Shown in pieces: positions 14,757 to 38,655 of a stretch of 64,000 nt of DNA. A model generated the notes under the pieces. That model was given only the letters and a program-made list of their open reading frames with translations. It had not been told where the DNA came from and did not search any database. Position 1 is the stretch's first letter, and each line of letters starts with the position of its first letter. The stretch lies in IMG/VR virus record IMGVR_UViG_3300047554_000375; one strand, written 5' to 3'. Both the position numbers and the translations under genes were made by a program. The stretch is from a virus (Duplodnaviria; Heunggongvirae; Uroviricota; Caudoviricetes).

Positions 14757-14831
14757 CTGGCGTTAGTATAATGGATAATACAGTAGGCTTCTACCCTTCT
14801 GATGGGAGTTCGATTCTCTCACGCCGGACCA
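14757..14831 (+). tRNA. tRNA-Arg (anticodon TCT)
   Basis: acceptor CTGGCGT/ACGCCGG, D-stem GTAT/ATAC, loop CTTCTAC, T-loop TTCGATT. Confidence 0.7.
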
Positions 14832-20309: not shown

Positions 20310-21039
20310 ACACCTAACAAAATGTATTGATTCGGTTGATAAGCAAACTTATCCCGATGTTTTGCATTATGTGTTTATTGATGGTAGAGAGCATCGTTCA
20401 AAAGTAAAATCACAAGTGATGGGCGCAGCCAAATTGCGTTTCATTGATTTAGAAGATAATGTCGGTAAAGGCTGGTATGGTCACCGTGTATACGCAGCCT
20501 GTTCATTTTTGGTGAACGCTGACATTATCCTCTATCTTGATGAAGACAACTGGCTAGAACCAGAGCATGTTGAAAAAATGGTAAAGAAAATAAATGAAGG
20601 CTATGATTGGGTTTATTCGTTACGAAAGATTGTTGATGTTGAAGGTAAATTCCTTTGTGAAGACAATTGCGAAAGTCTTGGTAAGTGGCCAGTGTTCTTT
20701 GATAAGAATGTTCACCATATCGACACTTCCTGTTTTGCTATTCGCCGTGATGTTGCTGTGCGTATTGGTCACGCATGGTACGGACAATGGGGAGCTGATA
20801 GACAATTTTATAAAGCACTATCAACCCATTTTTCCAATTACTCTTGCACCAATGAACACACAGTTAATTACCGCTTAGATGGTAATGAAAATTCTGTTAA
20901 AGCAGAATTCTTCGAATCTGGTAATGCAATAAATCAAGTAAACTATTCACCTAATAAATTTCCATGGAAAATGAACAGCGTATCGCACTGGTCACCGGTG
21001 CCGCAGGTTATCTCGGTTCGCACCTCTGCAAACGCCTAA
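20266..21039 (+). CDS. family-2 glycosyltransferase
   Basis: N-terminal VAVVTPTIG...SVDKQTYPD...DGREH...LDEDNW (DxD-like) pattern; track start 20221 is TTG, so the ATG at 20266 is used. Confidence 0.7.
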   Translation: MKMKVAVVTPTIGSKHLTKCIDSVDKQTYPDVLHYVFIDGREHRSKVKSQVMGAAKLRFIDLEDNVGKGWYGHRVYAACSFLVNADIILYLDEDNWLEPEHVEKMVKKINEGYDWVYSLRKIVDVEGKFLCEDNCESLGKWPVFFDKNVHHIDTSCFAIRRDVAVRIGHAWYGQWGADRQFYKALSTHFSNYSCTNEHTVNYRLDGNENSVKAEFFESGNAINQVNYSPNKFPWKMNSVSHWSPVPQVISVRTSANA

Positions 21040-21929
21040 AGAAAGAAGGCTGGTTTGTAATTGGCTTAGACCTCTTACATTCCCATCATCACTATTGGGA
21101 CAGATGGTGGCAATCCGATGTTACCGATAAATCAGCCGTTGAATCTGTATTCGTGGCTTACAAAGTGGATATTGTATTTCATTTTGCTGGCAGAATTGAA
21201 GTTGGCGAATCAGTAAAAAATCCAACAGAATTTTGGCACACAAACACCGCAGGAACTATCACGGTGTTAAATGCTATGAAAAAATTTGGAAATCAAGGAT
21301 GCGATAAAATCGTTTTCTCTTCCACTGCTGGTGTGTATTTTAGTGGATCACCTACACTTGCGGAACATGAAATTACCACAAGCAATAACCCATATGCCGG
21401 TAGTAAAATTGCCGCAGAGAATGCCATTCAAGAATCAGGACTCAAGTATGTTATCTTCCGATTCTTCAATCTTGCTGGCGCAGATTCTGATGGTGAATTG
21501 GGTGAAGACCATTATCCTGAAACACACTTGATTCCTAGAATACTCCAAAATCTAAATACTTTTGAGGTATATGGCGACAATTATCGTACAGTTGATGGAA
21601 CTGCCGAGCGTGACTATGTTCATGTGGAAGATGTGGTGGATGCTAACATTGAAGCCATAAAATATCTTGATGATGGTAGTCCATCCGAGATTATTAATTT
21701 AGGTAACGGAGTTGGTTATACAGTTCTAGAGGTTATACAAACGGTTAAATTGGTATCAGGTCAAAGTGTCAACTATACATTGAAAGCACCTCGTGAAGGT
21801 GACCCTGATATTCTTGTTGCAGATATACTCAAAGCAAGGCGCTTATTAAATTTCAAACCTAAACATGACATTGCCTCTATCGTACAATCCGCATATGGCT
21901 GGGAAAAGAAAAGAAAACGATATCGCTGA
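20964..21929 (+). CDS. NAD-dependent epimerase/dehydratase (GalE-like UDP-sugar 4-epimerase)
   Basis: TGAAGYLGSHL Rossmann motif, YxxxK-type catalytic region. Confidence 0.85.
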   Translation: MENEQRIALVTGAAGYLGSHLCKRLKKEGWFVIGLDLLHSHHHYWDRWWQSDVTDKSAVESVFVAYKVDIVFHFAGRIEVGESVKNPTEFWHTNTAGTITVLNAMKKFGNQGCDKIVFSSTAGVYFSGSPTLAEHEITTSNNPYAGSKIAAENAIQESGLKYVIFRFFNLAGADSDGELGEDHYPETHLIPRILQNLNTFEVYGDNYRTVDGTAERDYVHVEDVVDANIEAIKYLDDGSPSEIINLGNGVGYTVLEVIQTVKLVSGQSVNYTLKAPREGDPDILVADILKARRLLNFKPKHDIASIVQSAYGWEKKRKRYR

Positions 21930-22476
21930 GATTCCTGTACCACTACAGGAAATCTTTGATGTTGTTCTTCTAAAAAATCACACATTCTTTTTGACTGGTG
22001 ATATTGAAGAGGACAACATTAACGCCGCTATCAAATGGATCATTTATGAGAATTCCATTCCTAGTGATGAGCCACTTAAACTGTATATTAACTCGCAGGG
22101 TGGTGATTTGTACCAGGCTCTCGGCTTAATTGATATCATGCGTTTAAGTAATAAACCAATTCAAACATTTGGAGTTGGTGCCGTCATGTCAGCCGCATTC
22201 CTGATTTTCGCATCAGGTACTAAACATTACCGCTTCATAACAAGAAATTGTGGTATAATGTGTCATCAGTATTCAGATACTTACGAAGGCAAACACCACG
22301 ACTTAAAATCTTTCACTAAAGAAGCCGAACTAACAAATAATCGTATGTCAAAAATTCTTCAGGAAGCAACGGGCATGTCCGCTCGTGAAGTAAAATCCAA
22401 ACTGTTGTCGCCTAGTGACGTTTGGATGAGTGCCGAGGAACTTGTTCAACTAGGTGTAGCAGACTTTATATTGTAA
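21895..22476 (+). CDS. ClpP-like serine protease
   Basis: LYINSQGGDLYQALGLIDIMR and GVGAVMSAAFLIFASG align to the ClpP oxyanion/Ser region; track start 21865 trimmed. Confidence 0.75.
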   Translation: MAGKRKENDIAEIPVPLQEIFDVVLLKNHTFFLTGDIEEDNINAAIKWIIYENSIPSDEPLKLYINSQGGDLYQALGLIDIMRLSNKPIQTFGVGAVMSAAFLIFASGTKHYRFITRNCGIMCHQYSDTYEGKHHDLKSFTKEAELTNNRMSKILQEATGMSAREVKSKLLSPSDVWMSAEELVQLGVADFIL

Positions 22477-27075: not shown

Positions 27076-27729
27076 ATGTTTACATATTGCCCACCGAAAA
27101 AACTTGAAGACTTAAAATCAGAAACACTAAACAACGGAAGATATTACACTACACCGACCGGTGAGAAACTACCTTCCGTTACCACTGTTATTGGTGCGAT
27201 GGGCAAGAAAGCGATTTATGAATGGCGTCAGAGAGTTGGTGCAGAGGAAGCAAATCGTGTGTCACGCATCGCATCAGGTCGTGGCACACGAATGCACACT
27301 TTATGTGAAAAGTATTTGAATAATGAAGAGTTGGGTAAACCGATGCCTGACGCACTAGCATTATTCAATACTGTAAAACCTCTACTAAATAGAATAAATA
27401 ACATTCACTACCAAGAATGTGCTTTGTGGTCAATTAGACTTGGAATGGCAGGTCGTGTTGACTGTATCGGTGAGTTTGATGGTAAGTTATCTGTTATTGA
27501 TTTCAAGACCTCAAGCAGAGTAAAAACCAAAGAAGATATTCCCGCATACTTTGCCCAATGTGTGGCATATGCATTGATGTATGAGGAATTGATTGGTGTT
27601 AAGATTCACCAAATTGTCGTAATCATGGCGGTCGAAGGATCGAATCCTATCCTTTTTGTCGAAAGGACGGGTGACCATGTGAAAACATTGAAAGAATACA
27701 TAGATTTTTATAAAAAAACTGGCACATAA
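27076..27729 (+). CDS. putative PD-(D/E)xK superfamily nuclease
   Basis: GRVDCIGEF...DFKTS motif resembling a D...(D/E)xK core; weak. Confidence 0.5.
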   Translation: MFTYCPPKKLEDLKSETLNNGRYYTTPTGEKLPSVTTVIGAMGKKAIYEWRQRVGAEEANRVSRIASGRGTRMHTLCEKYLNNEELGKPMPDALALFNTVKPLLNRINNIHYQECALWSIRLGMAGRVDCIGEFDGKLSVIDFKTSSRVKTKEDIPAYFAQCVAYALMYEELIGVKIHQIVVIMAVEGSNPILFVERTGDHVKTLKEYIDFYKKTGT

Positions 27730-27757
27730 ATATGGTATAAAACTTTGAGAGATAAAC

Positions 27758-28315
27758 ATGGCATTACAATCATCAGGAGCAATATCGTTTTCTCAGATTC
27801 AGTCTGAGTTCGGTGGCTCAAATCCAATCAGTTTAAATGAATATTATAGTGCAGATGATGGTGTAGCGGGAAGTGGTACAATTTCCGTCAATCAATTTTA
27901 CGGAAGATCCAGACCATATTCTGCTAACTACACCACAATCAGCGCATATTACATTCCCACAGGAGCAGGTGGTACGGGAGAAGGTTTTTGGCGTGATGTT
28001 GCATCATGGACAAACAACACCAACAGAAAAGGTTCCGTCAGAATGTGGGGACATTTATGGGATGGATATTTTGGACCAGATAATTATGGTGCATGGTATT
28101 ATTCTCGTGGTAGTCATGTTTTCGGTTATAGGCTTTATCAAAACTCTTATCTATTGGTTGATGGATGGTACGGATATCACGGTGCTACCCATCCCTACTG
28201 GGACTTCACAACATATCTAAACAGAAATGATACTCTAAAAGCACAATATTATGGCTGGGGAAGTTATAATACCGACAAAATCACTGGTGGCTATTTCAAT
28301 ATCGGAGGAAGTTAA
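27758..28315 (+). CDS. Gly/Tyr/Trp-rich putative virion protein
   Basis: N-terminal AISFSQIQSEFGG...ISLNEYY motif; an ATAAATA late-promoter-like box lies upstream. Confidence 0.65.
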   Translation: MALQSSGAISFSQIQSEFGGSNPISLNEYYSADDGVAGSGTISVNQFYGRSRPYSANYTTISAYYIPTGAGGTGEGFWRDVASWTNNTNRKGSVRMWGHLWDGYFGPDNYGAWYYSRGSHVFGYRLYQNSYLLVDGWYGYHGATHPYWDFTTYLNRNDTLKAQYYGWGSYNTDKITGGYFNIGGS

Positions 28316-28584
28316 TGAGTAAAGTTTTTATTGGATATTCATTCCATATTCAATCACATTATGATAATGCATTGGATTATTTAAATAGTCGCTTACCGGA
28401 AAACCATGTTCAAATTGATTCTTCGCCGGTAGAATTGAAAAATGGAAAAAAAGCACTTGTTTGGCCAGAAGAGGCAGATTCGAACACATATATTTCCATT
28501 CTTTCAACACAATATGGTCAACCTATGCAATTTGTAACAGATGTTGATTTCTATCATCCAGGAAACGATTACGGAAATAATTGA
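28315..28584 (+). CDS. hypothetical protein
   Basis: ORF track, ATGA overlap. Confidence 0.6.
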   Translation: MSKVFIGYSFHIQSHYDNALDYLNSRLPENHVQIDSSPVELKNGKKALVWPEEADSNTYISILSTQYGQPMQFVTDVDFYHPGNDYGNN

Positions 28585-28593
28585 ACAATATTG

Positions 28594-28622
28594 TTGACAA
28601 ATAAATCATTATAATATATAAT
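28594..28622 (+). promoter_or_regulatory. sigma70-type promoter TTGACA-N17-TATAAT heading the enzyme cluster
   Basis: hexamers. Confidence 0.65.
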
Positions 28623-28646
28623 TTTTTAATATTCAGGAAGTGAAAA

Positions 28647-30200
28647 ATGAAAGATGAAAAAAATCCGAACAACTTTAATCCAGTTAATTCGGTAACTATT
28701 TTTGGTGGCGGTACTGCTGGTTGGATAACAGCACTCTCACTAACAGTTCAATGTCCACAATTAGCAATCACACTAATCCAACCCAAGTCACATTCGGTTA
28801 TAGGTGTTGGTGAATCCACACAACCAGACTTACTGCAACTCCTCAATAAAGCGGGAATTCCTATAGGCGAATTTATTCGTGAGTGTGATGCCACTGCAAA
28901 ATGTGGTATTTACTATGAAGATTGGTATGATATTGGAACACACTTTTGGCATCCATTTACGGACATGGCAAACAGTGAAGTCAACTACACCCTCGCACAT
29001 CATTATCAACAATTGATGTTGAAATATCCAGAAAAATACACACACGAAGATTATTATGATGCGGTGCATCCGTCTTATGATGTTTGTGTAACACATAAAA
29101 AAGTTGATGGAAAAAACGCTGCCGCACTTCATGTTGATGCCGACAAGATGCATAAATTTTTGCGTGAAAGACTTGATAATGTTACTGTATATGAGCCCGA
29201 AACTATTGAAGTTGTTTCCGAAGACAGTCAAGAAATACGATTCATTGATTGTGATGGTGTAAAAGTTGGCGGTGATTTGTTTATTGATTGTACAGGCTTC
29301 AATCGTGTTTTGATGCAACATTTAAATAATGTTGATGAAGATGCAAAAGAATACTATCACGAAAATGTTGAATCTGCAATCTTTGCAAGAATTCCTTACA
29401 TTGACCGTGAAAAAGAAATGTTGCCTTACACCAAAGCACATGCACAAAAACATGGCTGGATTTGGACAATTCCTCTATTCAGTCGCATAGGCTCAGGCTA
29501 TGTTTACACGAAAAATTCGTGTACTGCCGATGAAGCAGAAAAACAATTCCGTGAGTATTGGGGCGTTGAAAGAATGAAAGATGTTCCAATAAAGCATTTA
29601 GAATTTAAAAGCGATTCTTTAAAGCAACCATGGAAGAATAATGTTGTTGCTATCGGTCTAAGTTCTGGTTTTGTTGAACCTCTAGAGGCAACTGGTATTA
29701 ATTGGATTGTTACTGCGGCAAATAATTTATCTGCCGTTTTAGCGAGAAAATATTATGACCAACATGTTATTGATTTTTACAATTCTGGCATGAGTAACTA
29801 TGTCTCAGATGTTCAAGATTTTATTGATGTTCACTATAAACTTTCCAATAGAAAAGATTCTGTTTTATGGAACTATCATACAGTAAGAGGACATAATCCT
29901 AGATTGTATAGAAAATTGGAAGTCTATGGCACAGAAATGCCTGCGAAATGGAATAGACCTAGACATATGCCTTGGGCTTTCAATGAAGTTTCTTGGATTG
30001 ATATTTTGAATGGATACAAATTTAAATTTGAGGTTCAAGATATCAATGACGAGACTGTAGCAAGAATGCAGAAAGAATTCGCAAGAATTCGCTCTCTGAA
30101 AAAAGGAAGAGCGGATCATTGTTTAACACCATACGATTTTATTAAAGAAATACATGATACAAATAACAACACGCCAGTGGAAGAATTACCAAACAAATAA
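28647..30200 (+). CDS. flavin-dependent (tryptophan-type) halogenase
   Basis: N-terminal GGGTAGW FAD motif and the signature GWIWTIPL (WxWxIP) motif. Confidence 0.85.
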   Translation: MKDEKNPNNFNPVNSVTIFGGGTAGWITALSLTVQCPQLAITLIQPKSHSVIGVGESTQPDLLQLLNKAGIPIGEFIRECDATAKCGIYYEDWYDIGTHFWHPFTDMANSEVNYTLAHHYQQLMLKYPEKYTHEDYYDAVHPSYDVCVTHKKVDGKNAAALHVDADKMHKFLRERLDNVTVYEPETIEVVSEDSQEIRFIDCDGVKVGGDLFIDCTGFNRVLMQHLNNVDEDAKEYYHENVESAIFARIPYIDREKEMLPYTKAHAQKHGWIWTIPLFSRIGSGYVYTKNSCTADEAEKQFREYWGVERMKDVPIKHLEFKSDSLKQPWKNNVVAIGLSSGFVEPLEATGINWIVTAANNLSAVLARKYYDQHVIDFYNSGMSNYVSDVQDFIDVHYKLSNRKDSVLWNYHTVRGHNPRLYRKLEVYGTEMPAKWNRPRHMPWAFNEVSWIDILNGYKFKFEVQDINDETVARMQKEFARIRSLKKGRADHCLTPYDFIKEIHDTNNNTPVEELPNK

Positions 30201-30774
30201 TTCAATTAAACCGGATTGGACAAAAAACACTCAAGTCTCGACATGTCCCGGCTTGATGAATTATGTTACGGAAGGATTAGTTGTCCTTTGTCCAGATGAT
30301 TTCGAATTCGAAACTGCTGACGGAAAACTTATTCACTGGAGCGCAACTTCCGAAAACAATTTGATTCCACACTATTACTGGCAAGCAGACATTGTAAATC
30401 CTGGTCACACAATCGTAAAGTTTGACACAGGAATTATGTTGAAGCATGTGGAAGAACACAGATTGTTTTGTTTATTATCAGACTATGAGCCTATGAATCC
30501 GGCAATCAAAGTTATGCCTGCCGTTTTTCCTCTGTTAGATGTTTGGTCTCCAGTTATGATGAATACTGTTTGGCGAGATGGTATTCATAAAGTTAAAAAG
30601 GGTGATCCTCTTGCAAGAATATTCCTATCATACTATGGTGATTTTGAATATGAATATGCAGGTGAAACGAACTATCTCAAACAAGCCGAAGAATGGCTCA
30701 AGTTGAAAGAGGAACCAAATATACTAACTGCTTTCAATAAAGAAATGAAGAAATGTCCTTTCCACAATAAATGA
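30154..30774 (+). CDS. hypothetical protein (cluster member)
   Basis: ORF track; the start may be further downstream (47-nt overlap with the halogenase). Confidence 0.55.
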   Translation: MIQITTRQWKNYQTNNSIKPDWTKNTQVSTCPGLMNYVTEGLVVLCPDDFEFETADGKLIHWSATSENNLIPHYYWQADIVNPGHTIVKFDTGIMLKHVEEHRLFCLLSDYEPMNPAIKVMPAVFPLLDVWSPVMMNTVWRDGIHKVKKGDPLARIFLSYYGDFEYEYAGETNYLKQAEEWLKLKEEPNILTAFNKEMKKCPFHNK

Positions 30775-30775
30775 T

Positions 30776-31870
30776 ATGCACTACTATTCTGAAGATGGTA
30801 CGATATTCATGTCGAAAGTTAGGGCATTAGAGTATGGTAGAAAAAAACAACAGAAAATAAACTTCTATTACTATGATGATGTTTATAGTAAATGTGACTG
30901 GACTACAGAACCATCTGAAAGTTTGGAATATTACTATAAAGAGCAAGCACAAAGAATCCGTGATAACTATGATTATCTGATTCTTTGCTACTCTGGTGGA
31001 GCAGATTCGACAAACATTTTAGAGACTTTCCACTTTAATGGTATCAAACTTGATAAAATTATTACAGTTGGTGCTTTAAGTAAAGATCCAGAATATGGCT
31101 CAGATAAAAATCATAATGGTGAACTTTATCATAATGTTTTTCCATATATCAAAGAATTGGGTTTAGAATCAATCACAGAGGTAATTGACTACACAAAATT
31201 TTTTGATGATATCAACAGTCTATCAATCGTACAATATCAGGATGAATGGATCGACATTGTTGGTCCATGGTACAGTCCACATCACTGGTTCTGGAGAGAT
31301 TTGGAAAAACATGTTGTTCCTAAAAATATAGGCAACAAACGAGTTGCCATAATTTTTGGTAAAGATAAGCCAGGTCTATTCTACGGAAAGACAAATAAAC
31401 CAGATGTTATCTTACCGAGCGGAAATACCATGCTGAATGGATTCAACTTCAAAGATACCCCGTGTTCAGATTATGGTAACTTAAACTTACCGTACGGTTA
31501 TACAAATATTGATAGAGTTAATTTTTATTGGGATCCAACTTATCCACAGATACTTTTGAAACAATTACATGTTTTAAAAAATCATTATGTAATAACACAT
31601 TCAACATCATACGATCCATTCTTAGGGTCACAGATGTTTGGTGGAAAAATGACGGATCATATTGTTTACAATCTGAAAAGACCTTTGGTTTTTAAATCAC
31701 CAAAAAGTATCACTCCCATTATAAGTTTGAGGGACGATTTTCTGAAGGACAGTAAAGATTCGGATGTTTTTAAACTGCATGATGCTGGTATAAAAAAGAT
31801 GAAGATGCATATTGATTTGAATGAATTGGTGACAATCAATTCTAAATTTTATAATATTCTAAAAGGATAA
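30776..31870 (+). CDS. PP-loop ATP pyrophosphatase superfamily protein (paralog A)
   Basis: LILCYSGGADS (SGGxDS) motif; N-terminal region is paralogous to 36029-37228. Confidence 0.75.
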   Translation: MHYYSEDGTIFMSKVRALEYGRKKQQKINFYYYDDVYSKCDWTTEPSESLEYYYKEQAQRIRDNYDYLILCYSGGADSTNILETFHFNGIKLDKIITVGALSKDPEYGSDKNHNGELYHNVFPYIKELGLESITEVIDYTKFFDDINSLSIVQYQDEWIDIVGPWYSPHHWFWRDLEKHVVPKNIGNKRVAIIFGKDKPGLFYGKTNKPDVILPSGNTMLNGFNFKDTPCSDYGNLNLPYGYTNIDRVNFYWDPTYPQILLKQLHVLKNHYVITHSTSYDPFLGSQMFGGKMTDHIVYNLKRPLVFKSPKSITPIISLRDDFLKDSKDSDVFKLHDAGIKKMKMHIDLNELVTINSKFYNILKG

Positions 31871-31871
31871 T

Positions 31872-32714
31872 TTGATGTTTAAGAATAAGGTGCCTAAATT
31901 TTTTGGGCACATATCCGCACTAAAAGATGGTAATTTAGTTTTGCCGGATTTCATATTGAACAATGGTGAAGATGGCGTAAATTTAATGCACCGATATTGT
32001 CCACATAGAATGTATCCTATGCATACTCCTGGAGAAATTGTACAGGAAGTTAGTTGTAAATTTCACAATTTCAGATGGGACAAAAATGGAGTTCCACTCA
32101 ATAATGATAAGAAACTACATTGTGGTAAAATAACAACAGGTCGCAGTGGTGTTTTGTTTAGAGATTTTATTGAACCTGACCACAAATGGGTTGATGATTT
32201 GTCGAATGAGAAAAATTTGAAATATAGTCATTCACTGGAAGGTCAGAGTGAAGGAAGTTGGCTGTGGTTATTGGATGCTGAAGCCGATTTACTCCATGTT
32301 TACGAGGATGGTATTCATCCGTTCTTGTCGAAACAAGTTAAGATAGAAGATATTCAAATGGATCAAGGTGATGGTTGGATTCTACAAACACATCCGACTG
32401 GTTGGTGGTTGTATGTTTTTCCATTCTTGTTCATTGAATACTCACCAGGTTGTGTGATGATAAACAATGTCATACCAAACGATATCAATACTGAGTTTGG
32501 TTTCAAGTGGATATCACAGTTCTATTATGATGATAGTGTTGATGTGGGTGCTAGAAGAATCTTTGAAACTTGCGAAGAAGTTTTTTGTGAGGATGTTCAA
32601 ACAGCAGAGTTACAAAAAGGTAAATACTTTCCTCTGATGAAGGCGATGAACAGATATGAGGATCATTGTGTTCATCTAGGAAAATGGTACAGAGAAAATG
32701 TTAACAAAGAATAA
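31872..32714 (+). CDS. Rieske [2Fe-2S] domain protein, oxygenase-like
   Basis: CPH-X16-CKFH Rieske motif; downstream DLLH...EDGIH resembles a mononuclear iron site. Confidence 0.75.
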   Translation: MMFKNKVPKFFGHISALKDGNLVLPDFILNNGEDGVNLMHRYCPHRMYPMHTPGEIVQEVSCKFHNFRWDKNGVPLNNDKKLHCGKITTGRSGVLFRDFIEPDHKWVDDLSNEKNLKYSHSLEGQSEGSWLWLLDAEADLLHVYEDGIHPFLSKQVKIEDIQMDQGDGWILQTHPTGWWLYVFPFLFIEYSPGCVMINNVIPNDINTEFGFKWISQFYYDDSVDVGARRIFETCEEVFCEDVQTAELQKGKYFPLMKAMNRYEDHCVHLGKWYRENVNKE

Positions 32715-33513
32715 TTGGTTATACACCAATCTAGCGGATAGATTTACAAATCCTGCTTCCGATTTTAATATGGGTATAAACTTATATCCGTTTAAACATA
32801 TGACTTTTCAGGAAGCCGCTGATTATACTTGCATGGAGATTGTAAAAAATTACGACAATCTTTTTCTTGCGTTCAGTGGTGGCATGGACTCAGATTTCGT
32901 TTTGCGTTGCTTTCACAGAAATAATATTGCTATTAAACCAATCATCGTTGTCTGTGGTAAACAGATTGAAAATGAGTATGCATATAGATTGTGTGATGAA
33001 CTAAAGATAGAACCCATAATTATTGAAATTACCGAAGAGCAATTCATATACTTTTACAGAGAACACATTTATAAAAAGTTTAATGGAGTAGGATATAATG
33101 CATCACAAGTCTTGGTGGCTGCCGAATTAGTTGAAAAAGAAGGTGGTACATTAATAACAGGAAATCACTTTATGGGTGATGGTGATGATATGATAACCGA
33201 TGAAGTTTATCTGATATCGAATGAGTGGGACTTCTATACAGACTACTGTTTTACAGGATGTAAAAATATAGACTTCTTTCTCTACACACCAGAGATTGCA
33301 TATGCTATGATGCCTGATGAAAACATCACATGGAATAGACACAAAGAAAAAATATTTCAAATTCCATATAGAGATAAAATGCGTCCAGTTTATTCTGAGG
33401 AGACCACTGCTGAGGTGAGAAGAATGGCCAGAAACAGGATTCCTCTAAAGAAGACTGGTGAAGTTTGGACTAAGAATAAATTCCTAAATGTTTTCGATAA
33501 ATATAAATTTTAA
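32698..33513 (+). CDS. PP-loop ATP pyrophosphatase superfamily protein (divergent third copy)
   Basis: LAFSGGMDSD motif. Confidence 0.7.
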   Translation: MLTKNNWLYTNLADRFTNPASDFNMGINLYPFKHMTFQEAADYTCMEIVKNYDNLFLAFSGGMDSDFVLRCFHRNNIAIKPIIVVCGKQIENEYAYRLCDELKIEPIIIEITEEQFIYFYREHIYKKFNGVGYNASQVLVAAELVEKEGGTLITGNHFMGDGDDMITDEVYLISNEWDFYTDYCFTGCKNIDFFLYTPEIAYAMMPDENITWNRHKEKIFQIPYRDKMRPVYSEETTAEVRRMARNRIPLKKTGEVWTKNKFLNVFDKYKF

Positions 33514-33522
33514 GGAACATTT

Positions 33523-33867
33523 ATGCCTAAAATCATAAAAACTATTACCAACAAATCCAACAATAAGGCTTGGATCAACACAAACGAGTATCAAAATTAT
33601 TTCACTCAAGAGCAGATAGATGGAATTATTAATCCATATACAGACTATGTTCAAAGTTTGCCAGGTTTCATTTCTGTTAATATTGAAGAAACATCAAATA
33701 CATTAGTGATTACTCACGAATTTGATACACAGGAAAATTTAGAGGTCGCATTAAACAATCTTGGTGGTCCAAATGTCAACTCTATCGTTGTTATGAGAAA
33801 TACACTTTTCACAGAAAAGTTACAGGGACTCGGAGCAAATTCTACTTTAACTATAACCTTTGAATAA
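33523..33867 (+). CDS. hypothetical protein (cluster member)
   Basis: ORF track. Confidence 0.6.
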   Translation: MPKIIKTITNKSNNKAWINTNEYQNYFTQEQIDGIINPYTDYVQSLPGFISVNIEETSNTLVITHEFDTQENLEVALNNLGGPNVNSIVVMRNTLFTEKLQGLGANSTLTITFE

Positions 33868-33870
33868 TTT

Positions 33871-35163
33871 ATGTTTAGTCGTGATACATATTGTATTTTG
33901 CCATGGTCATCAATACAAATAAATCCATCAGGAGATTATAAAATTTGTTGTTTCTCTGGAGTGACTGGAGAAAATCACGGAATGGCGATTGACTCTGATG
34001 GAAAAGTGATGAATGTTATGACACATTCAATAAAAGAAGCATTGAATAGTGAAAATCATAAACAATTAAGATTGTCACAATCGAAAAATGAGAGAAATCC
34101 TTTATGCAAAGTTTGTTGGGATAGGGATGATGCCAACAAAAATAATGCAAGAACAACATCATTAAGATTCTTTAGGACATTCGACCAATTACCAGGACTA
34201 GATAATGCAGTAACATTGGAGAAGGCATCCGGTGTTATGGCTAATGATGGTTCAATTGATGAGTTTCCTATTAGTTTGGATTTGAGATTTACTAATGTCT
34301 GCAATATGAAGTGTATCATGTGCAGTTCGAAATATAGTAATCAATGGTATGAAGATGAAGAAAAACTGTATGGAACAAATTTCATGCATGTGGATCCATC
34401 ACTAAAATATAACATCATAGTGAAAAATGGAGTTTATAAATCTGACATGCCTGTTTGGCATGATTCTGACGCATGGTGGAAAAATTTTGATGACATTAAA
34501 CACAGAATACGACACCTTTATCTGACAGGCGGAGAACCGTTTATAGTTAAAGGACATGATGTTCTCTTAGACAAACTAATTGAGTTGAATTTGGCTTCCA
34601 ACATTATCTTGGAATATGATACAAATCTTAGTGTAATCAACGACAAAATATTGAATAGACTAAAGCAGTTCAAAGAAGTTATTTTATCTGTTAGTTGTGA
34701 CGATGTTGATGAACAATATGAGTTGATAAGATTTCCTGGAAAATTCAGCAACATGACTAAAAATTTACAGTTGTTGAAGGACAGAGATTTTGAGATAAGA
34801 CATTTGTCCACTTGTATAGGAATTTATTCTATATTTTCTCCACTTAGACTTCGTGATAAATTTCCTGAATATAAATTATCACTTAGAATGTTGAGAGCAC
34901 CATTTCATTCTGATATAATGTATTTGCCTAAAAGTGCTAAAGAGGAAGTCATTCGTGTCTATAGAGAATCTAATATCGAAGATAGGTGGAAGAACTTTGT
35001 TATTTCATATTTGGAAAATAATATGAATACATTTCCAGATAAAGAATGTGTTGATATGACAAAACAGCACATTAACTATCTAAATAAATTGGATGAGATT
35101 CGTGGTACAGATTGGAAAAAAACATTTCCTGATGTTGTTAAATTATTAGAAAGATGCTTATGA
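33871..35163 (+). CDS. radical SAM enzyme with N-terminal Cys-rich extension
   Basis: CNMKCIMC (CX3CX2C) and LYLTGGEPF motifs; additional CxxC pairs near the N-terminus. Confidence 0.8.
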   Translation: MFSRDTYCILPWSSIQINPSGDYKICCFSGVTGENHGMAIDSDGKVMNVMTHSIKEALNSENHKQLRLSQSKNERNPLCKVCWDRDDANKNNARTTSLRFFRTFDQLPGLDNAVTLEKASGVMANDGSIDEFPISLDLRFTNVCNMKCIMCSSKYSNQWYEDEEKLYGTNFMHVDPSLKYNIIVKNGVYKSDMPVWHDSDAWWKNFDDIKHRIRHLYLTGGEPFIVKGHDVLLDKLIELNLASNIILEYDTNLSVINDKILNRLKQFKEVILSVSCDDVDEQYELIRFPGKFSNMTKNLQLLKDRDFEIRHLSTCIGIYSIFSPLRLRDKFPEYKLSLRMLRAPFHSDIMYLPKSAKEEVIRVYRESNIEDRWKNFVISYLENNMNTFPDKECVDMTKQHINYLNKLDEIRGTDWKKTFPDVVKLLERCL

Positions 35164-36032
35164 AAATTAAAATGATGTTATTGAGTTTATTGTTGTCGTT
35201 GAATGTGAATGCACAAACAACAGTAATTTTGCCTGTTGGCTCTGGTGGTTTGATTCACAAATATGCACTTGAGATGCAACCATTCTTCAACAAAACATTG
35301 GATGGTGTTGTGTATGATTTGAAACCTGGTGCAGGTGGTGTTATTGGCGCCGCTGCCCTCGCTGAGAATAAGACAGAAAAAATGGTTCTACTATTTGGTC
35401 CTGTACAAAACTGGCCAACTAATCCATTGACAGATATGATTCCTGTAGCATATATGGGAACAATTCCTGGTGTGATTTTTACTAAACAAAACACCAAATA
35501 TTCAAACTTCAAAGAAGTTATGGAATATGCTAAAACAAATTCTGTTTCATATGGAGTTCCTGGCGCAAGTAATAATGGTAAATTGATCCGCAGTATGGTA
35601 GAAAAATATAGCACACCGAAGAATGTTATTGAAGTCCCTTATAAAAGTGGTGCGATGATTACAACGGATGTTGTAGGTGGTCACTTAGAAATTGGTGTGT
35701 CGATTCCAAATAATATAAATCAATATATTGATGAAAATAAGTTGACTGCTTTAGGTGTTTTTGCCGCACAGCGTTCGCATTATTTGCCTAATGTGCCAAC
35801 ATTACGAGAACAGGGTTTGTCCATTCCTCAAGACTATAAGTATTTCAACAATGTTTTCTTGTTTGCAAATAAGACTGCTAATCCACAAGATGTTGAAAAA
35901 TTGCGTAAAGCAATCGTAGAATTTATGCGTAGCGATGAATCTTTGGAAGTCAGAAAGAGAATGGATATTAGTTTCGGCAAACAAAGTATTTCATCACCAG
36001 AAAAGTATATCAGAGAAATTATTACAGAATGA
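35154..36032 (+). CDS. secreted Bug/TctC-family-like solute-binding protein
   Basis: signal peptide; KPGAGGVIGAAALAE region resembles the tripartite tricarboxylate receptor family. Confidence 0.6.
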   Translation: MLMKIKMMLLSLLLSLNVNAQTTVILPVGSGGLIHKYALEMQPFFNKTLDGVVYDLKPGAGGVIGAAALAENKTEKMVLLFGPVQNWPTNPLTDMIPVAYMGTIPGVIFTKQNTKYSNFKEVMEYAKTNSVSYGVPGASNNGKLIRSMVEKYSTPKNVIEVPYKSGAMITTDVVGGHLEIGVSIPNNINQYIDENKLTALGVFAAQRSHYLPNVPTLREQGLSIPQDYKYFNNVFLFANKTANPQDVEKLRKAIVEFMRSDESLEVRKRMDISFGKQSISSPEKYIREIITE

Positions 36033-37228
36033 TTATCACCAACATGTCTGTCAATTCTATTGATAGACTTGGACATTATGAAGTAGGTAATCAGAGATTC
36101 CTACACAAACATATTGCGTTGTTTGAATCGAAGAGAACAAATCAAAAATTAAAATTTTATTTTAATGATGATGTTTTTGACCAGTATGATTGGACAACGG
36201 AGCCTGAGCCAGATACTGGCTTGGGTGAATTCTACAGACGCCGAGCGCAACAGTTGAGGGATAACAATGATTATCTAGTTCTATCGTATAGTGGTGGTCC
36301 AGATAGTCAGAATATCCTAGATACTTTCCTTAAATATGATATCAAATTGGATGAAATTGTAAACTTCAACAGTTACAAATCAACCAATGTTGTTGAAGGA
36401 ACTATTCACAACGCAGACTATCTCTATAATGTTAAACCACAAGTGGATGAAATCGTGAAGAGATATGGAACATCAAAAATGAAAATAACCATTCTTGATG
36501 AAGTTGAAATGTTGGATACAATCTGGAAAGAATTTAGAAAGCGTGATGAGCATGAGATATTGTTTGGTGCAAATAGTTTTCCTTCTGCTCCACTCTACAG
36601 AGGTTTCTGGATTAAACACACAAAACATATCTGGGATATGATCCTTGAAGGAAAAAAAGTTTGTGTGATATATGGAACAGATAAACCAACACTAAGAATA
36701 AGTGATGGAAAATATTCGATGGGTTTCAATGATATCTTTTCATGTGATACTGCTGGAATGATTCTATCTGATCCTGATTTGAAAGGGAGAAATTTTCTAG
36801 AGTTCTTCTATCAAAGCCCTGATGATGTTAAACTTATAATTAAGCAAGCACATGTTTTGAAAAGATATGTTGAAAAACTGGATCATCCAGGATATTTTGA
36901 ACCAAGAGAGCCATATTTTAGAATGGGTAATCGTCCACATTTATATTGTGAGAGTAAAGAATATAGTGGTAATCTGAAATACAAATACTTCCATGAGACA
37001 ATTTATCCTGACTGGAAACCTGTGTTCATAACACCTAAAGAAGGATTTCTGGGTAACAGACCTCTGGATAATTGGTGGGTAGATAGTATGGACAAATCAG
37101 TATCATCAATATGGAAACATGGAAGTGAAGAAACTTTTAAAAAATTCAAGGACATTTTAAAAGTGGGTACAACAGGTTTCACTGGATTACCATTGACAAT
37201 GAGCAAATATTATTCCCTGGAGAAATAA
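36029..37228 (+). CDS. PP-loop ATP pyrophosphatase superfamily protein (paralog B)
   Basis: LVLSYSGGPDSQN motif; paralogous to 30776-31870 (both have YDWTTEP...RDN.DYL.L.YSGG.DS.NIL.TF). Confidence 0.75.
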   Translation: MIITNMSVNSIDRLGHYEVGNQRFLHKHIALFESKRTNQKLKFYFNDDVFDQYDWTTEPEPDTGLGEFYRRRAQQLRDNNDYLVLSYSGGPDSQNILDTFLKYDIKLDEIVNFNSYKSTNVVEGTIHNADYLYNVKPQVDEIVKRYGTSKMKITILDEVEMLDTIWKEFRKRDEHEILFGANSFPSAPLYRGFWIKHTKHIWDMILEGKKVCVIYGTDKPTLRISDGKYSMGFNDIFSCDTAGMILSDPDLKGRNFLEFFYQSPDDVKLIIKQAHVLKRYVEKLDHPGYFEPREPYFRMGNRPHLYCESKEYSGNLKYKYFHETIYPDWKPVFITPKEGFLGNRPLDNWWVDSMDKSVSSIWKHGSEETFKKFKDILKVGTTGFTGLPLTMSKYYSLEK

Positions 37229-37452
37229 TGAGATATTATATTCGCTACAATGTTGACCATAAAAATGGTAAAAGTGACTTGCCATGGAAAGTATTTGAAT
37301 CCGAAGATAAATTTTACTTGACAAGAAATGTAATTCTCTATACAATATCATGGACTGGTGACACACCGTTTCCTGACGGTGGTTTCAAGTACAGCATCTA
37401 TTGTGATGGAAAAATGACTTCTTGTGATGAGAATGAAATTGTGATAGAATAA
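37228..37452 (+). CDS. hypothetical protein
   Basis: ORF track, ATGA overlap. Confidence 0.55.
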   Translation: MRYYIRYNVDHKNGKSDLPWKVFESEDKFYLTRNVILYTISWTGDTPFPDGGFKYSIYCDGKMTSCDENEIVIE

Positions 37453-37454
37453 AT

Positions 37455-37785
37455 AGATGTATGGTTGTATGAAGCAACTTGAAAAGTGTTCTGGACGGGG
37501 GTTCGAATCCCCCCATCTCCACCAAAAGCATATACAGGTTTAAGTCCTGAGTGATACGGTGACCGAATCCGTACTTCCAGATTTGGGTGTGCTTTTGATG
37601 GGGATGCACTTGGTTTCGACAGGGCAACAAGTATAGAAGTGGACAACTTATCAGAGTAGATATAAAAACTAAATAAAGTAAACGCAAACGATGAAAAGTT
37701 CGCATTGGCAGCCTAAACGCTGACTAGGGTTTCGGTGGATTCCTCGTAACAGAATATCCACCACTTTACACATACACAACACAGG
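37455..37785 (+). ncRNA. ssrA: circularly permuted (two-piece) tmRNA gene, tag peptide ANDEKFALAA
   Basis: T-arm CGGGGG-TTCGAAT-CCCCCC plus acceptor 3' strand CATCTCC-A-CCA at 37496-37524; the acceptor 5' strand GGGGATG...TTCGACAGGG starts DOWNSTREAM at 37600, with G3-U70; the tag reading frame GCA AAC GAT GAA AAG TTC GCA TTG GCA GCC TAA lies at 37684-37716; gene boundaries are approximate. Confidence 0.75.
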
Positions 37786-37792
37786 AGATAAT

Positions 37793-38056
37793 ATGAGTAT
37801 GAGTCCCTTTGAGATTCGCCTAGAATTACTGAAAATGGCAAAAGATATGCTAGAATCAGATTACTTCGGCGAAAGAGAAAAAATAGCCAACCAGTTCGCA
37901 ATGGACTGTGATTCAGCAAAAGCAAAAGGTGCAGAGACCCCTAAGCATCCAGGCTATCCAAAATATCCATCAGAACAAGAAATTATCAACAAAGCACAAA
38001 CACTAAATGGGTTCGTGTCGATGTTGCCTGACGCCACAAAGCCGAAGAAATCCTGA
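37793..38056 (+). CDS. hypothetical protein
   Basis: strong RBS AGGAG. Confidence 0.65.
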   Translation: MSMSPFEIRLELLKMAKDMLESDYFGEREKIANQFAMDCDSAKAKGAETPKHPGYPKYPSEQEIINKAQTLNGFVSMLPDATKPKKS

Positions 38057-38097
38057 TGGAAGGACCGAATGGTTCTTAACACACAGAAAGGAAAAAT

Positions 38098-38655
38098 ATG
38101 CGAAGTATGCCTATACTTTTAAGTATAATGCTATCAGCAGTTATCTTAACTATGTCGATGGTAAATATCAGACAGCCAGATTTACCAATCAAAGCGAATT
38201 ATAATGTATTGACTGCGGAACTACAGAAACAAGTTAGTTGTCTAGCAGAAAACATTTACTTTGAAGCGGCACACGAACCACTAGAAGGTAAACATGCCGT
38301 TGGTTTCGTGACAATCAACAGAGTTCAATCTGGTAACTATGCTAATGATATATGTGGAGTTGTTCAACAAAAAGATGGTAATCTATGCCAATTTTCTTGG
38401 TATTGTGATAAGACAATTACCAACAAACGATTGACAATCAAACAAACTCCGTTGTATAATGAGATATTGCAGATTGCAACAAATCTTGTTGTAAACTTTG
38501 AGAGAATGACAGATGTGACAAACGGTGCAACTTACTATCATGCCAACTATGTTAATCCTGGTTGGACAAGATTGAAAAAAGTTGAAACGATTGGTAATCA
38601 CATTTTTTATAAACGCAGTTCGGACAGAATTGACAGAAATAAAGGAATCATATGA
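38098..38655 (+). CDS. SleB-like cell wall hydrolase (endolysin) with N-terminal signal-anchor
   Basis: N-terminal TM segment; YFEA(A/R)xEP...GKxAVGxVxxNR and QFSW core resembling the SleB/hydrolase-2 family. Confidence 0.8.
   Translation: MRSMPILLSIMLSAVILTMSMVNIRQPDLPIKANYNVLTAELQKQVSCLAENIYFEAAHEPLEGKHAVGFVTINRVQSGNYANDICGVVQQKDGNLCQFSWYCDKTITNKRLTIKQTPLYNEILQIATNLVVNFERMTDVTNGATYYHANYVNPGWTRLKKVETIGNHIFYKRSSDRIDRNKGII

Follow-up and report, generated by a model that had tools for sequence, protein, structure and literature searches.

Halogenases carried by cyanophages and pelagiphages stand among unrelated oxygenases and structural genes. Asparagine synthetase B (AsnB) joins a synthetase domain to a glutaminase domain, and in betaproteobacteria Bug-type solute-binding proteins are far more numerous than permeases. 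The locus described here, from a freshwater T4-like phage, brings a halogenase together with new ligase-like ATP-using enzymes, a secreted protein that binds carboxylates, and an oxygenase, and the core formed by these last three is undescribed: a literature text search found no paper on the pairing of PP-loop enzyme and binding protein, and three of the genes (g2, g4, and g9) have no tblastn match in 50,697 deposited phage records, which agrees with the view of an earlier note that this is not a known phage module.

RESULTS

Organization of the block

The window, by which we mean the whole 64,000-nucleotide stretch analyzed, contains ten open reading frames (g1 to g10), all on the plus strand between positions 28647 and 37452 and all confirmed as real at these coordinates. 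The earlier note had described a single co-directional operon of nine proteins; its reading frames and their direction stand, but the count is ten, as its own list adds up to. Gene junctions range from -47 to +9 nucleotides, and the promoter postulated ahead of the genes matches the sigma-70 consensus at 12 of 12 positions (TTGACA-17-TATAAT, 28594 to 28622, plus strand), lies 25 nucleotides upstream of g1, and is the sole 12/12 match in a consensus scan of positions 27700 to 38200. The 27 tRNA genes and one tmRNA gene reported beside the cluster were also confirmed and, because the tmRNA (37410 to 37768) matches the beta_tmRNA model at 137 bits, the phage host is probably betaproteobacterial. 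Elsewhere, the window encodes a GT2 glycosyltransferase, a sugar epimerase/dehydratase, and a D-Ala-D-Ala carboxypeptidase, and reading of the sequence at 38098 to 38655 suggested a possible SleB-like hydrolase.

From comparison with syntenic and distant loci, the block is made up of two conserved modules, S1 (a g3-type PP-loop enzyme, an oxygenase, and the small PP-loop enzyme g5) and S2 (a secreted TctC-like protein and a g9-type PP-loop enzyme), alongside a radical SAM enzyme and a halogenase-g2 pair that are optional. In L092, a distantly related phage of 157 kb, g3-like, oxygenase, g5-like, g7-like, TctC, and g9-like genes follow the same order as in the window at 27 to 45% identity, and this conservation supports a functional link among g3 to g9; in L092, the g5-like and g9-like genes are each preceded by a TctC gene of their own. 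Other islands have further genes for enzymes that form amides or introduce oxygen, namely Amidoligase_2, carbamoyltransferase, TauD, 2OG oxygenases, and B12 radical SAM enzymes. The block is not one indivisible pathway of nine genes, since neither the halogenase nor g2 occurs in its closest relatives, the syntenic loci L001 and L007; the L007 group also lacks the radical SAM gene, and the Rieske gene can stand alone in other phages (L097).

PP-loop enzymes

The proteins g3 (364 amino acids, 30776 to 31870, the first gene of S1) and g9 (399 amino acids, 36029 to 37228, in S2) are paralogs, as the earlier note proposed, related at 34% identity (BLASTP E value of 3e-29) over their N-terminal ~210 residues only and sharing the motif SGGxDS (SGGADS in g3). 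We refer to them as the g3 and g9 subtypes of the P family; in fold, this family most resembles beta-lactam synthetase and the synthetase domain of AsnB, and not TilS or QueC. The g9 model (pLDDT of 92.6) has the PP-loop fold, and the g9-type enzyme resembles AsnB in its synthetase fold but is without the glutaminase domain. No Pfam, PHROG, or NCBIfam model matches the family, nor does a tblastn search with g9 detect it in the 50,697 deposited phage records. At least 592 IMG/VR contigs carry a member, clustering at 50% identity divides the family into 1,803 groups, and relatives of g9 were found on only three contigs of metagenome-assembled genomes (MAGs) among 185,579 species genomes. The core of the block is widespread in uncultured phages and almost absent from cells, and the block is not one commonly found in host genomes.

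The third, divergent PP-loop enzyme that had been suspected is g5 (271 amino acids, 32698 to 33513), which we assign to a separate p family. It weakly matches QueC, TilS, LarE, and ArgG-related families in Pfam and NCBIfam; its profile matches NAD synthetase (7.6e-5), TtuA, and ArgG in the PDB and aligns with the g3/g9 family over the PP-loop region (hhalign, 94.7%). It has 86 homologs, and SGGxDS, E91, C99, D178, and K227 are invariant. The PP-loop proteins are acidic to neutral (median pI of 6.8 and 5.7) and have no detectable RNA- or DNA-binding domain, their scores against tRNA or QueC families in Pfam and NCBIfam all fall under the cutoffs, and g3, g5, and g9 show no detectable domain for binding lipids or sugar nucleotides.

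Module S1

Between g3 and g5 lies g4 (279 to 280 amino acids, 31872 to 32714, with its likely start at the ATG at 31875), a compact Rieske non-heme-iron oxygenase (PF00355, E value of 4e-6). Both the Rieske ligands C43/H45/C62/H65 (CxH...CxxH) and the residues D139/H142/H149/D241 are invariant in 39 homologs, and an AF2 model (pLDDT of 92) can be superposed along its whole length on Rieske oxygenases, including CntA, SxtT, Stc2, and TPADO (Foldseek E value of 4e-13, TM of 0.6 to 0.69).

Of the 66 g5-selected loci on which the neighbor counts for S1 are based, 49 contain a P gene, 13 a Rieske gene, and 31 a gene for an FA_hydroxylase, of the membrane di-iron lipid hydroxylase family; no locus has both oxygenases, which are mostly sited between P and p, and the p gene is flanked by one or the other in 44. 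The S1 oxygenase is thus a Rieske enzyme in this phage, whereas it is a membrane FA_hydroxylase in others. P genes beside p are of the g3 type in 29 of 37 cases, and orthologs of g3 adjoin oxygenase and g5 genes in other phages; g5 can also stand alone (L093). The acidic protein g6 (114 amino acids, 33523 to 33867; 53% identity in L001 and 31% in L007) is genetically coupled to g5, with a homolog adjoining the p gene in 8 of the 66 loci (directly after it in 7 and directly before it in L225).

Module S2

The S2 protein g8 (292 amino acids, 35154 to 36032) is a TctC/Bug-type solute-binding protein (PF03401, E value of 1e-22) with a cleavable-looking, signal-peptide-like N terminus, as the earlier note had read it. 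Its nearest solved relatives, Bug27 (1.4e-16) and a terephthalate-binding protein (2.5e-16), bind nicotinate/citrate-type ligands and terephthalate, and nearly all phage homologs retain a hydrophobic N terminus. The end of g8 (36032) and the start of g9 (36029) form a 4-nucleotide overlap (ATGA), the two genes of L003 (9120 to 10004 and 10001 to 11188) also overlap by 4 nucleotides, and such translationally coupled TctC-P pairs recur across lineages in which the TctC proteins are only 22 to 56% identical. A binding-protein gene directly adjoins P in 43 of 88 P-selected loci and is not adjacent in the other 45, and in most of the P-selected loci the TctC-P pair occurs without S1. A second, DctP-like binding-protein family, which is without a signal peptide and keeps FTYSGG(F/Y)R, is also a repeated component of these islands: it is present in 23 of the 88 P-selected loci, and a P gene is present in 31 of 80 DctP-selected loci.

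Optional genes

The first gene, g1 (517 amino acids, 28647 to 30200), encodes an optional, lineage-specific flavin-dependent halogenase that matches PF04820 (Trp_halogenase, E value of 7.8e-93), phrog_2928 (2e-100), tryptophan halogenases in the PDB (phmmer, 1e-63 for 5hy5), and the enzyme VirX1 of a cyanophage (phmmer, 6e-57). It contains the motifs GGGTAGW, GWIWTIPL, and FVEPLE, and a false halogenase call is countered by the catalytic Lys, where ATAK lines up with ATYK, and the catalytic Glu of EPLE, both of which are present in the PDB phmmer alignment. Its companion g2 (206 amino acids, 30154 to 30774), seen only with g1 and in this phage, matches no Pfam or NCBIfam family and only weakly phrog_7084 (3.8e-5), with no relatives in an IMG/VR pattern scan or, by phmmer, in the 66 g5-selected loci. 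L001 has neither gene, and L007 has a 2OG oxygenase in the place of this pair.

The radical SAM enzyme g7 (430 amino acids, 33871 to 35163) bears an N-terminal twitch/SPASM-like Cys domain, where the earlier note had read an extra Cys-rich one, scoring 280 bits against NF033640 (N-terminal-twitch radical SAM; cutoff of 170) and matching PF04055 (Radical_SAM) and PF13186 (SPASM). It contains CNMKCIMC and GGEP, weakly matches viperin, MoaA, and QueE-like cores, and has copies at 45 to 47% identity beside P or p genes in six other loci (L050, L053, L056, L068, L080, and L092). The terminal frame g10 (74 amino acids, 37228 to 37452), whose 3' end overlaps the tmRNA gene, is kept only in L001 and L002 (82 to 84%); like g2 and g6, the other two proteins listed as lacking recognizable motifs, it has no family match.

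DISCUSSION

The reading that we tentatively prefer, as one possibility with less than even prospects, is that the block forms a system, restricted to phages, in which a carboxylate is captured and then adenylated, amidated, and oxygenated, with two modules and optional tailoring genes acting on one or closely related substrates. In S2, secreted g8 would bind a carboxylate-bearing compound in the periplasm of a betaproteobacterial host and presumably pass it to the host's own TctA/TctB permease, and g9 would adenylate the carboxylate and let ammonia or another amine attack the resulting acyl-adenylate to give an amide. A point against this reading is that none of the ~40 window ORFs scanned encodes TctA/TctB, a flavin reductase, or a Rieske reductase, so that the host must supply several partners. 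S1 (g3, g4, and g5, with g6) would perform second and third ATP-dependent activations around an obligatory oxygenation, by the Rieske enzyme here and elsewhere by the membrane di-iron hydroxylase, and a thio-intermediate may be attached to the invariant Cys in g5. Decoration of the substrate, in some lineages only, would fall to the halogenase and g2 and to the N-twitch radical SAM enzyme. Also against carboxylate capture, the FA_hydroxylase alternative points to a lipid-like or membrane-bound substrate and not a soluble, imported one, co-location in hyperplastic T4-like regions can arise without shared function, the Rieske gene of L097 is solitary, and P genes often lack TctC, with no adjacent binding-protein gene in 45 of 88 loci.

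That same hydroxylase, which stands in for the Rieske oxygenase at 31 of the 66 g5-selected loci, leads to an unlikely alternative, in which amide-forming and hydroxylating chemistry is applied to envelope precursors and not to an imported metabolite, giving, for example, amidated peptidoglycan or LPS carboxylates or hydroxylated/amidated aminolipids or lipid A, and in which the TctC-like protein and porins are further phage-installed envelope components. Peptidoglycan mDAP is amidated by enzymes of the AsnB type (LtsA/AsnB1), and OlsE and LpxO/OlsC are hydroxylases that we take to be members of the two hydroxylase families seen here. Porin genes occur in L052, L069, and L077, a TauD gene and a faintly matching Asp_Arg_Hydrox-family gene occur in L009, a carbamoyltransferase gene occurs in L092, and the window has the glycosyltransferase, epimerase/dehydratase, carboxypeptidase, and possible SleB-like hydrolase noted above. 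However, the window's envelope genes lie 6 to 13 kb from the block in the conserved lineage backbone, the Rieske variant is soluble and closest in fold to enzymes whose substrates are small and polar, the known role of TctC/Bug proteins is to bind solutes and not to act as envelope enzymes, and the PP-loop proteins lack detectable domains for binding lipids or sugar nucleotides.

Less probable again is a mosaic of ten independent auxiliary ("moron") genes, co-transcribed by position within one hyperplastic early region and having no common pathway. Such a mosaic is consistent with the coming and going of g1, g2, and g7 among close relatives, with the isolated Rieske and g5 genes, with the TctC-P pairs that occur without S1, and with the unrelated surroundings of cyanophage and pelagiphage halogenases, but it does not account for the gene order common to the window and L092, the slot between P and p that two oxygenase families share and never occupy together, the coupling that recurs despite divergent TctC proteins, or the correlation of P subtypes with their neighbors.

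We regard as improbable the modification of nucleic acids, offered as an alternative in the earlier note, whereby the PP-loop enzymes would adenylate a tRNA or phage DNA base as TilS, QueC, TtcA, and MnmA do and the oxygenase and radical SAM enzyme would elaborate it. Phage restriction is typical of DNA modification genes, g5 and g7 have the weak matches to QueC/TilS and to viperin, MoaA, and QueE-like proteins, FolE and a PTPS/QueD-like gene flank a g5-like/Rieske pair in L096, the TctC-P pair of L003 sits among DNA methyltransferases, and the window carries its 27 tRNAs and tmRNA. This alternative nevertheless finds little support because the most constant partner is a secreted binding protein, the PP-loop proteins are not basic, score under the cutoffs for tRNA and QueC families, and have AsnB/beta-lactam synthetase-like folds, and searches detected no relative of FolE or QueD across the whole window and, in the ~40 ORFs scanned against Pfam, no family of the TGT/DpdA or QueE type; a membrane FA_hydroxylase, moreover, fits a nucleic acid substrate poorly.

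It is very improbable that the block produces a RiPP-like peptide, with AsnB-like enzymes forming amide or lactam bonds as the lasso cyclase does, the radical SAM enzyme, halogenase, and hydroxylases tailoring it, and g6 or g10 as precursor or recognition element: SPASM/twitch matches do include peptide maturases, Asp/Arg-hydroxylase, B12 radical SAM, and Amidoligase_2 genes occur in related islands, and these two small ORFs adjoin PP-loop genes, but only the closest relatives have g10 and only 8 of 66 loci have g6, no small ORF is conserved alongside P or p from lineage to lineage, some lineages do without the radical SAM gene, and genes for a protease, RRE/PqqD, or an exporter were looked for and not found.

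Within the block, a second promoter-like site (11/12 with TG, 34891 to 34919, plus strand) lies in the 3' end of g7, ~240 nucleotides 5' of g8, and, as a consensus match, could permit expression of S2 apart from the rest.

A ten-gene block in an uncultured T4-like phage

Ten co-directional ORFs on the + strand (28647-37452; ORF calls on the window), numbered g1 to g10, encode a halogenase (g1), a Rieske protein (g4), a radical SAM enzyme (g7), a TctC-like binding protein (g8), three PP-loop proteins (g3, g5, and g9), and three proteins to which searches of family libraries assigned no family (g2, g6, and g10). Adjacent genes overlap by up to 47 nt or are separated by up to 9 nt, and starts overlap by 1 to 4 nt at g8/g9, g9/g10, and g7/g8, the last only if g8 is taken to start at codon 3, the start used in the related phage locus L001. 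The sole 12/12 match of the region to TTGACA-17-TATAAT lies at 28594-28622, and 11/12 matches occur inside the 3' end of g7, upstream of g8, and within g10 (37318-37346), upstream of a tmRNA gene. The operon described in an earlier note on this DNA therefore stands as a co-directional, tightly packed unit behind a perfect promoter match, except that it comprises ten ORFs and not nine.

The genes around the block (PhoH, a PD-(D/E)XK nuclease, ClpP, RNase H, gp59, gp32, and a baseplate wedge protein) identify the source as a T4-like myophage distant from the cyano- and pelagimyophages. The tmRNA at 37410-37768 (+ strand; tag ANDEKFALAA), which is of the permuted, two-piece form, matches the betaproteobacterial model RF01850 with 137 bits and points to a probable betaproteobacterial host; tmRNAs are uncommon in phages. 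G+C content is 34.4% in the block and 37.8% in the window. Neither megablast nor blastn matched the block DNA to deposited phage genomes, and tblastn searches with g9, g2, and g4 found no match in 50,697 phage records, so that no isolated phage is usable as a model.

Halogenase, radical SAM enzyme, and Rieske protein

Judged by its sequence, g1 genuinely belongs to the family of flavin-dependent halogenases. Residues 16-459 match PF04820 (312 bits against a cutoff of 21; E=7.8e-93), phrog_2928 is matched at E=2e-100, and phmmer pairs the protein with a solved Trp 6-halogenase (5hy5; 1e-63) and with VirX1 (6e-57) of cyanophage Syn10, the first viral halogenase to be characterized (PMC8407142). 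The motifs GGGTAGW (residues 20-26; flavin-binding GxGxxG) and GWIWTIPL (WxWxIP) are present, and HMMER aligns 'cdatakcg' of g1 with 'cnatykla' of 5hy5 at the catalytic Lys (equivalent to PrnA K79) and 'fvepleatgi' with 'fveplestgi' at the active-site Glu (EPLE). The Pfam match and these two residues argue against the possibility, raised earlier, of a generic FAD oxidoreductase. Homologs at about 30% identity occur in 86 phage records. Compared with VirX1 and with the cyanophage and pelagiphage genes annotated as 'tryptophan halogenase', g1 is of the same Pfam and PHROG families and has all motifs, but its identity to the marine phage proteins is only about 29-32%, and the cyanophage and pelagiphage genes sit amid 2OG/JmjC/PhyH oxygenases or structural genes, a context different from that of g1. 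In three more loci, halogenase homologs lie close to porin genes and to the PP-loop and TctC genes described below. No flavin reductase partner for g1 was found among the approximately 40 window ORFs scanned. A pyrrolnitrin-like pathway (PrnA halogenase plus PrnD Rieske protein) was also considered and rejected, because close relatives do without the halogenase and PrnB and PrnC equivalents are missing.

The radical SAM enzyme g7 scores 280.5 bits against NF033640 (cutoff of 170) and is assigned by this profile to the N-terminal-twitch radical SAM subfamily; it carries CNMKCIMC (CX3CX2C), a SPASM domain (PF13186) at residues 8-83, and a Radical_SAM domain at residues 139-316.

The compact Rieske protein g4 (280 aa; PF00355, E=4e-6) is probably an oxygenase. 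Its Rieske ligands (C43, H45, C62, and H65) are invariant among 39 homologs, as is a candidate iron-site set of D139, H142, H149, and D241 (D-x2-H-x6-H...D), and its AF2 model (pLDDT of 92) matches over its full length the folds of CntA, SxtT/GxtA, stachydrine demethylase (Stc2), and terephthalate dioxygenase (E=4e-13, TM of 0.6-0.69). The alpha3-type Rieske monooxygenases CntA, Stc2, and SxtT/GxtA, whose substrates are small and polar, resemble g4 in this fold and in the Rieske ligands, and the invariant set of g4 is a candidate for their 2-His-1-carboxylate site with its bridging Asp; these enzymes differ from g4 in length (320-415 aa), in sequence (about 13-17% identity), in the usual His-x4-His spacing, and in that g4 has no reductase gene close by. 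Neither the block nor the window ORFs scanned include a cognate reductase or ferredoxin, and the reductase may be supplied by the host. The g4 family is a phage family of more than 300 metagenomic proteins at 60-70% identity that is absent from deposited phage records; its gene is solitary in one related locus (L097) and has only a g5-like partner in another (L096).

Two PP-loop families

All three PP-loop proteins belong to the ATP pyrophosphatase superfamily. The paralogs g3 and g9 (34% identity across approximately 210 residues, E=3e-29) represent one family, here termed P, and g5 is the third, smaller protein, of a family termed p. Neither g3 nor g9 matches any entry in Pfam (including PF00733, Asn_synthase, at E<=0.1), NCBIfam, or PHROG; a g3/g9 profile finds no match among PDB sequences, and Pfam searches of 26 long members yielded nothing useful by way of fused domains. 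An alignment of 53 P members retains SGGxDS, with S88, G90, and D92 invariant, together with about 18 further invariant positions, none of which is a Cys.

The g9 model (pLDDT of 92.6) matches the folds of PP-loop enzymes, and the closest known fold to the P family is the synthetase (C-terminal) domain of class-II AsnB, beta-lactam synthetase, carbapenam synthetase CarA, and TsnB9. The g9 model has the fold of this synthetase-domain class, aligning to AsnB-type synthetases over approximately 230-250 of its 399 residues at 6-10% identity. Unlike those enzymes, g9 contains no Ntn glutaminase(-like) domain: an N-terminal beta-alpha unit of approximately 45 residues leads directly into the PP-loop, and the C-terminal half is unassigned. 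Although they are PP-loop proteins, g3, g5, and g9 go unrecognized in profile tests for AsnB, QueC, and TilS, and none of the three combines a profile match to TilS or other tRNA-modifying PP-loop enzymes with a tRNA-binding domain. PF00733 is present in a single g5 homolog (P0159). The g5 family (window 32698-33513) keeps G61, G62, D64, and S65 invariant, along with a single Cys (C99) that lies approximately 35 residues past the PP-loop motif in 30/30 aligned homologs and could, by analogy, signal thio-chemistry as in LarE, ThiI, or MnmA.

P proteins occur on at least 592 IMG/VR contigs, and the family numbers 1,803 representatives at 50% identity (E<=1e-3), 921 of them at E<=1e-30, every member being named 'hypothetical protein' at its source. 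No P protein was found in the 50,697 deposited phage records. The earlier note had allowed that host genomes might be the common home of the block; among 185,579 species represented by one genome each, only three P relatives appeared, all on MAG contigs. The P family is thus almost confined to phages, which again sets it apart from AsnB and its relatives.

Secreted and cytoplasmic binding proteins

The TctC/Bug-type binding protein g8 scores 81 bits against PF03401 (cutoff of 27) and begins with a predicted signal peptide, MLMKIKMMLLSLLLSLNVNA, which is followed by QTT; its best solved relatives are Bug27 and a terephthalate binder. The N terminus is hydrophobic in 42/44 phage TctC homologs, and in 88 loci selected for a P gene, in which ORFs were called and clustered, all TctC-like proteins but one have a signal-peptide start, the exception (in L062) being an over-extended ORF call. 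The Bug/TctC proteins of tripartite tricarboxylate transporters (such as Bordetella Bug27 and Comamonas TphC) are like g8 in PF03401 membership, length, and signal peptide, but g8 is encoded by a lytic-type T4-like phage and is translationally coupled to a cytoplasmic PP-loop enzyme instead of to tctA/tctB. Neither the window ORFs scanned nor the genes tabulated for related loci include TctA or TctB, and no permease gene was seen in the window.

Cyanophage PstS, a phage phosphate-binding protein, is a host-derived auxiliary gene product that works with the host transporter in a nutrient role. It is the nearest concept to the one proposed for g8, with the phage giving only the periplasmic binder and the host giving the membrane parts; g8 differs in its binding-protein family, in its transporter type, and in being paired with phage-specific enzymes.

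Another family of binding proteins, DctP-like (DctP/TRAP-type), is found on at least 452 IMG/VR contigs, and none of its members has a signal peptide; a conserved I(R/K)W(V/L)(L/I)AHEP stands at the very start of these proteins. The stretch PFAPGGAAD is kept in the phage TctC proteins of L030, L036, L040, and L049, and FTYSGG(F/Y)R in the DctP-like proteins; both lie within the carboxylate-binding regions of the respective families. Signal-less examples are encoded in L008, L020, L023, L046, L052, and L098-L177 (e.g., L102, 8001-8948), and the gene is sometimes divided into two ORFs of approximately 160 aa (L066, L075, L082, L083, L085, and L088).

Recurring pairs and gene order

TctC-like genes are present in 43/88 of the P loci and DctP-like genes in 23/88 (either in 53/88), and a binding-protein gene immediately adjoins the P gene in 43/88. 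In the reverse direction, 31 of the 80 DctP-like loci examined have a P gene, and 30 have a TctC gene, within 8 kb. The TctC-P pair with overlapping stop and start recurs in unrelated contexts, such as L003, and L009 holds two such pairs; P paralogs are commonly in tandem. Other frequent neighbors of P are DUF2061 (at most four genes away in 13/88 loci), porins, BKACE, AhpC/AhpD-like proteins, TauD, 2OG oxygenases, and B12 radical SAM proteins.

Several individual loci illustrate these surroundings. In L003 (3458-14506), the pair lies between three DNA methyltransferases (N6_N4_Mtase, Eco57I-type, and Dam) and an NAD-salvage pair (NMNAT-Nudix and NAMPT). Gram-negative porin genes (Porin_4) are found a few genes from TctC/P pairs in L052 (6582-7487, - strand), L069, and L077, and a small DUF2061 membrane protein gene adjoins P and DctP-like genes in L008 (9577-10014), L032, L042, and L064.

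A second set was selected on g5 (86 homologs; 64 IMG/VR loci; 66 loci examined). These loci contain a P gene in 49/66 cases, a TctC gene in 36/66, a gene for an FA_hydroxylase (PF04116, approximately 150 aa) in 31/66, a Rieske gene in 13/66, and homologs of g6 and g7 in 8/66 and 6/66, respectively. In these loci, Rieske and FA_hydroxylase genes never occur together, and both are positioned mostly between P and p. Of the 56 loci left after dereplication, 39 have P and p no more than 1 kb apart; P proteins encoded beside p are mostly g3-type (29/37; median of 351 aa), and those beside TctC are mostly g9-type (14/20).

The 157-kb contig L092 has the gene order of the window: a g3-like gene (36%), FA_hydroxylase, TctC, a g5-like gene (33%), a g7-like gene (45%), Amidoligase_2, one unassigned gene, a carbamoyltransferase, TctC, a g9-like gene (27%), and a 2OG oxygenase. 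The nearest relatives of the block retain g3-g4-g5-g6-g8-g9 and are missing the halogenase and g2, whose position is empty of both in L001 and is taken by a 2OG oxygenase in L007; the radical SAM gene is also missing from the L007 group. The block divides into two modules and some optional genes. Module S1 joins the g3-type P to an oxygenase and p, and g6 goes with it; module S2 holds the secreted TctC and a g9-type P; g1 plus g2 and g7 are optional. Relative to L001, the segment with the halogenase, g2, and the consensus promoter looks like an insertion.

Proposed chemistry and alternatives

Each enzyme of the block belongs to a known superfamily, with g1, g7, and g8 recognized as members of their own families, and profiles, motifs, and folds agree with all of the enzyme assignments made from the bare sequence (halogenase, Rieske, three PP-loop, radical SAM, and TctC/Bug). 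We found no described counterpart of the combination in the family libraries or the phage collection, nor in literature searches on phage TctC, PP-loop, or solute-binding-protein combinations, above all for the phage-specific AsnB-like ligase with a secreted TctC binder and for the P-oxygenase-p triad, as the earlier note had surmised in calling it no known phage module. Gene families, folds, the export signal, phage restriction, and the recurring pairing and order are shown, and the system itself is genuine, conserved, confined to phages, and undescribed. The tailoring pathway proposed in that note is partly supported: the pairing and order of S1 and S2 recur, and the halogenase, g2, and the radical SAM enzyme are optional among relatives.

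We infer that P enzymes would activate a carboxylate by adenylation and turn it into an amide, because their five nearest structural relatives share that chemistry. The TctC-like protein, and in phages that have one also the cytoplasmic DctP-like protein, would bind the same carboxylate-bearing compound, as the known ligands of both families suggest; oxygenation would be integral to the pathway, since two unrelated oxygenases fill the same slot; and the permease and reductases would come from the host. P and p have acidic to neutral pI values and a secreted partner, which speaks for a small molecule or an envelope component as substrate and against nucleic acid. Adenylation, amidation, and oxygenation of a free carboxylate metabolite is the reading that we favor, tentatively and at somewhat less than even confidence. 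Its fullest form is a possibility that we regard as speculative: that uncultured freshwater phages own a multi-enzyme small-molecule pathway missing from cells, built on a new AsnB-like PP-loop family and a dedicated secreted binder (in some phages with a porin and a cytoplasmic DctP-like binder), which during infection takes up an exogenous carboxylic acid and converts it into a new amidated, hydroxylated, and here halogenated compound that serves replication or counter-defense.

The same chemistry could act instead on envelope precursors, an option that we consider rather doubtful even though FA_hydroxylase, as a membrane enzyme, favors it, as do porin and further envelope genes. That the block is an accidental mosaic of genes is unlikely: although some members come and go among relatives, the pairs and their order recur across loci. 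Nucleic-acid modification is improbable. Phage 7-deazaguanine clusters (FolE/QueD/QueE/QueC/DpdA) do unite a PP-loop and a radical SAM enzyme in a phage, as the block does, and g5 is weakly QueC-like, but its QueC profile score of 15.2 bits lies under the cutoff of 22, g7 belongs to a different radical SAM family (NF033640), tblastn found neither FolE nor PTPS/QueD in the window, and no TGT/DpdA or QueE-type family occurs among the window ORFs scanned, in line with the mismatch to the standard toolkit noted earlier. FolE and PTPS accompany the g5-like/Rieske pair in L096 only and have no window counterpart, and the 7-deazaguanine pathway was rejected on these grounds. Peptide modification by these enzymes is the least credible of the alternatives and very improbable.

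An NAD-salvage role had three leads, namely, Bug27 as the best match to g8, NAD synthetase as the best match to g5, and the NAMPT/NMNAT genes beside the L003 pair. It was set aside because such neighbors occur in only 4/240 loci and not in the window, and it survives only as a weak sub-hypothesis.

If the carboxylate reading is true, phage biology gains a large unannotated family in g3/g9, which has some 1,800 clusters at 50% identity, as well as two families that accompany it. A phage would then unite a periplasmic binding protein and the enzymes that act on its ligand in the cytoplasm, which goes beyond known single-gene auxiliary functions. Viral flavin-dependent halogenases and a highly conserved Rieske oxygenase of phages would also gain a genomic context and, through it, a way to find their natural substrates. 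Because the conserved pairs are small and soluble, ligand screening and ATP-PPi assays can test the question directly.

Other genes of the window and of related loci

In L096 (4779-10089), the g5-like and Rieske genes lie between genes for GTP cyclohydrolase I (FolE) and a PTPS/QueD-like protein, with a DegT-like fragment and ClpP close by, and in that phage only, the pair may be linked to pterin or 7-deazapurine metabolism. The window carries an array of 27 tRNA genes (9096-14831, + strand), including two tRNAs with CAT anticodons and three tRNA-Thr, among which small ORFs are interspersed, such as an RNaseH-like ORF (11895-12365) and a metallophosphatase (13996-14568). Further auxiliary genes encode a D-Ala-D-Ala carboxypeptidase (Peptidase_S11; 15918-16631), a GT2 glycosyltransferase overlapping an NAD-dependent sugar epimerase/dehydratase (20221-21929), ClpP (21865-22476), and an SPFH/Band 7 protein (4240-5097). 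The region 5' of the block varies: L001 encodes an extremely glycine-rich protein of 359 aa (3668-4747) where the window has a 185-aa ORF (27758-28584), and the two have their N terminus in common.
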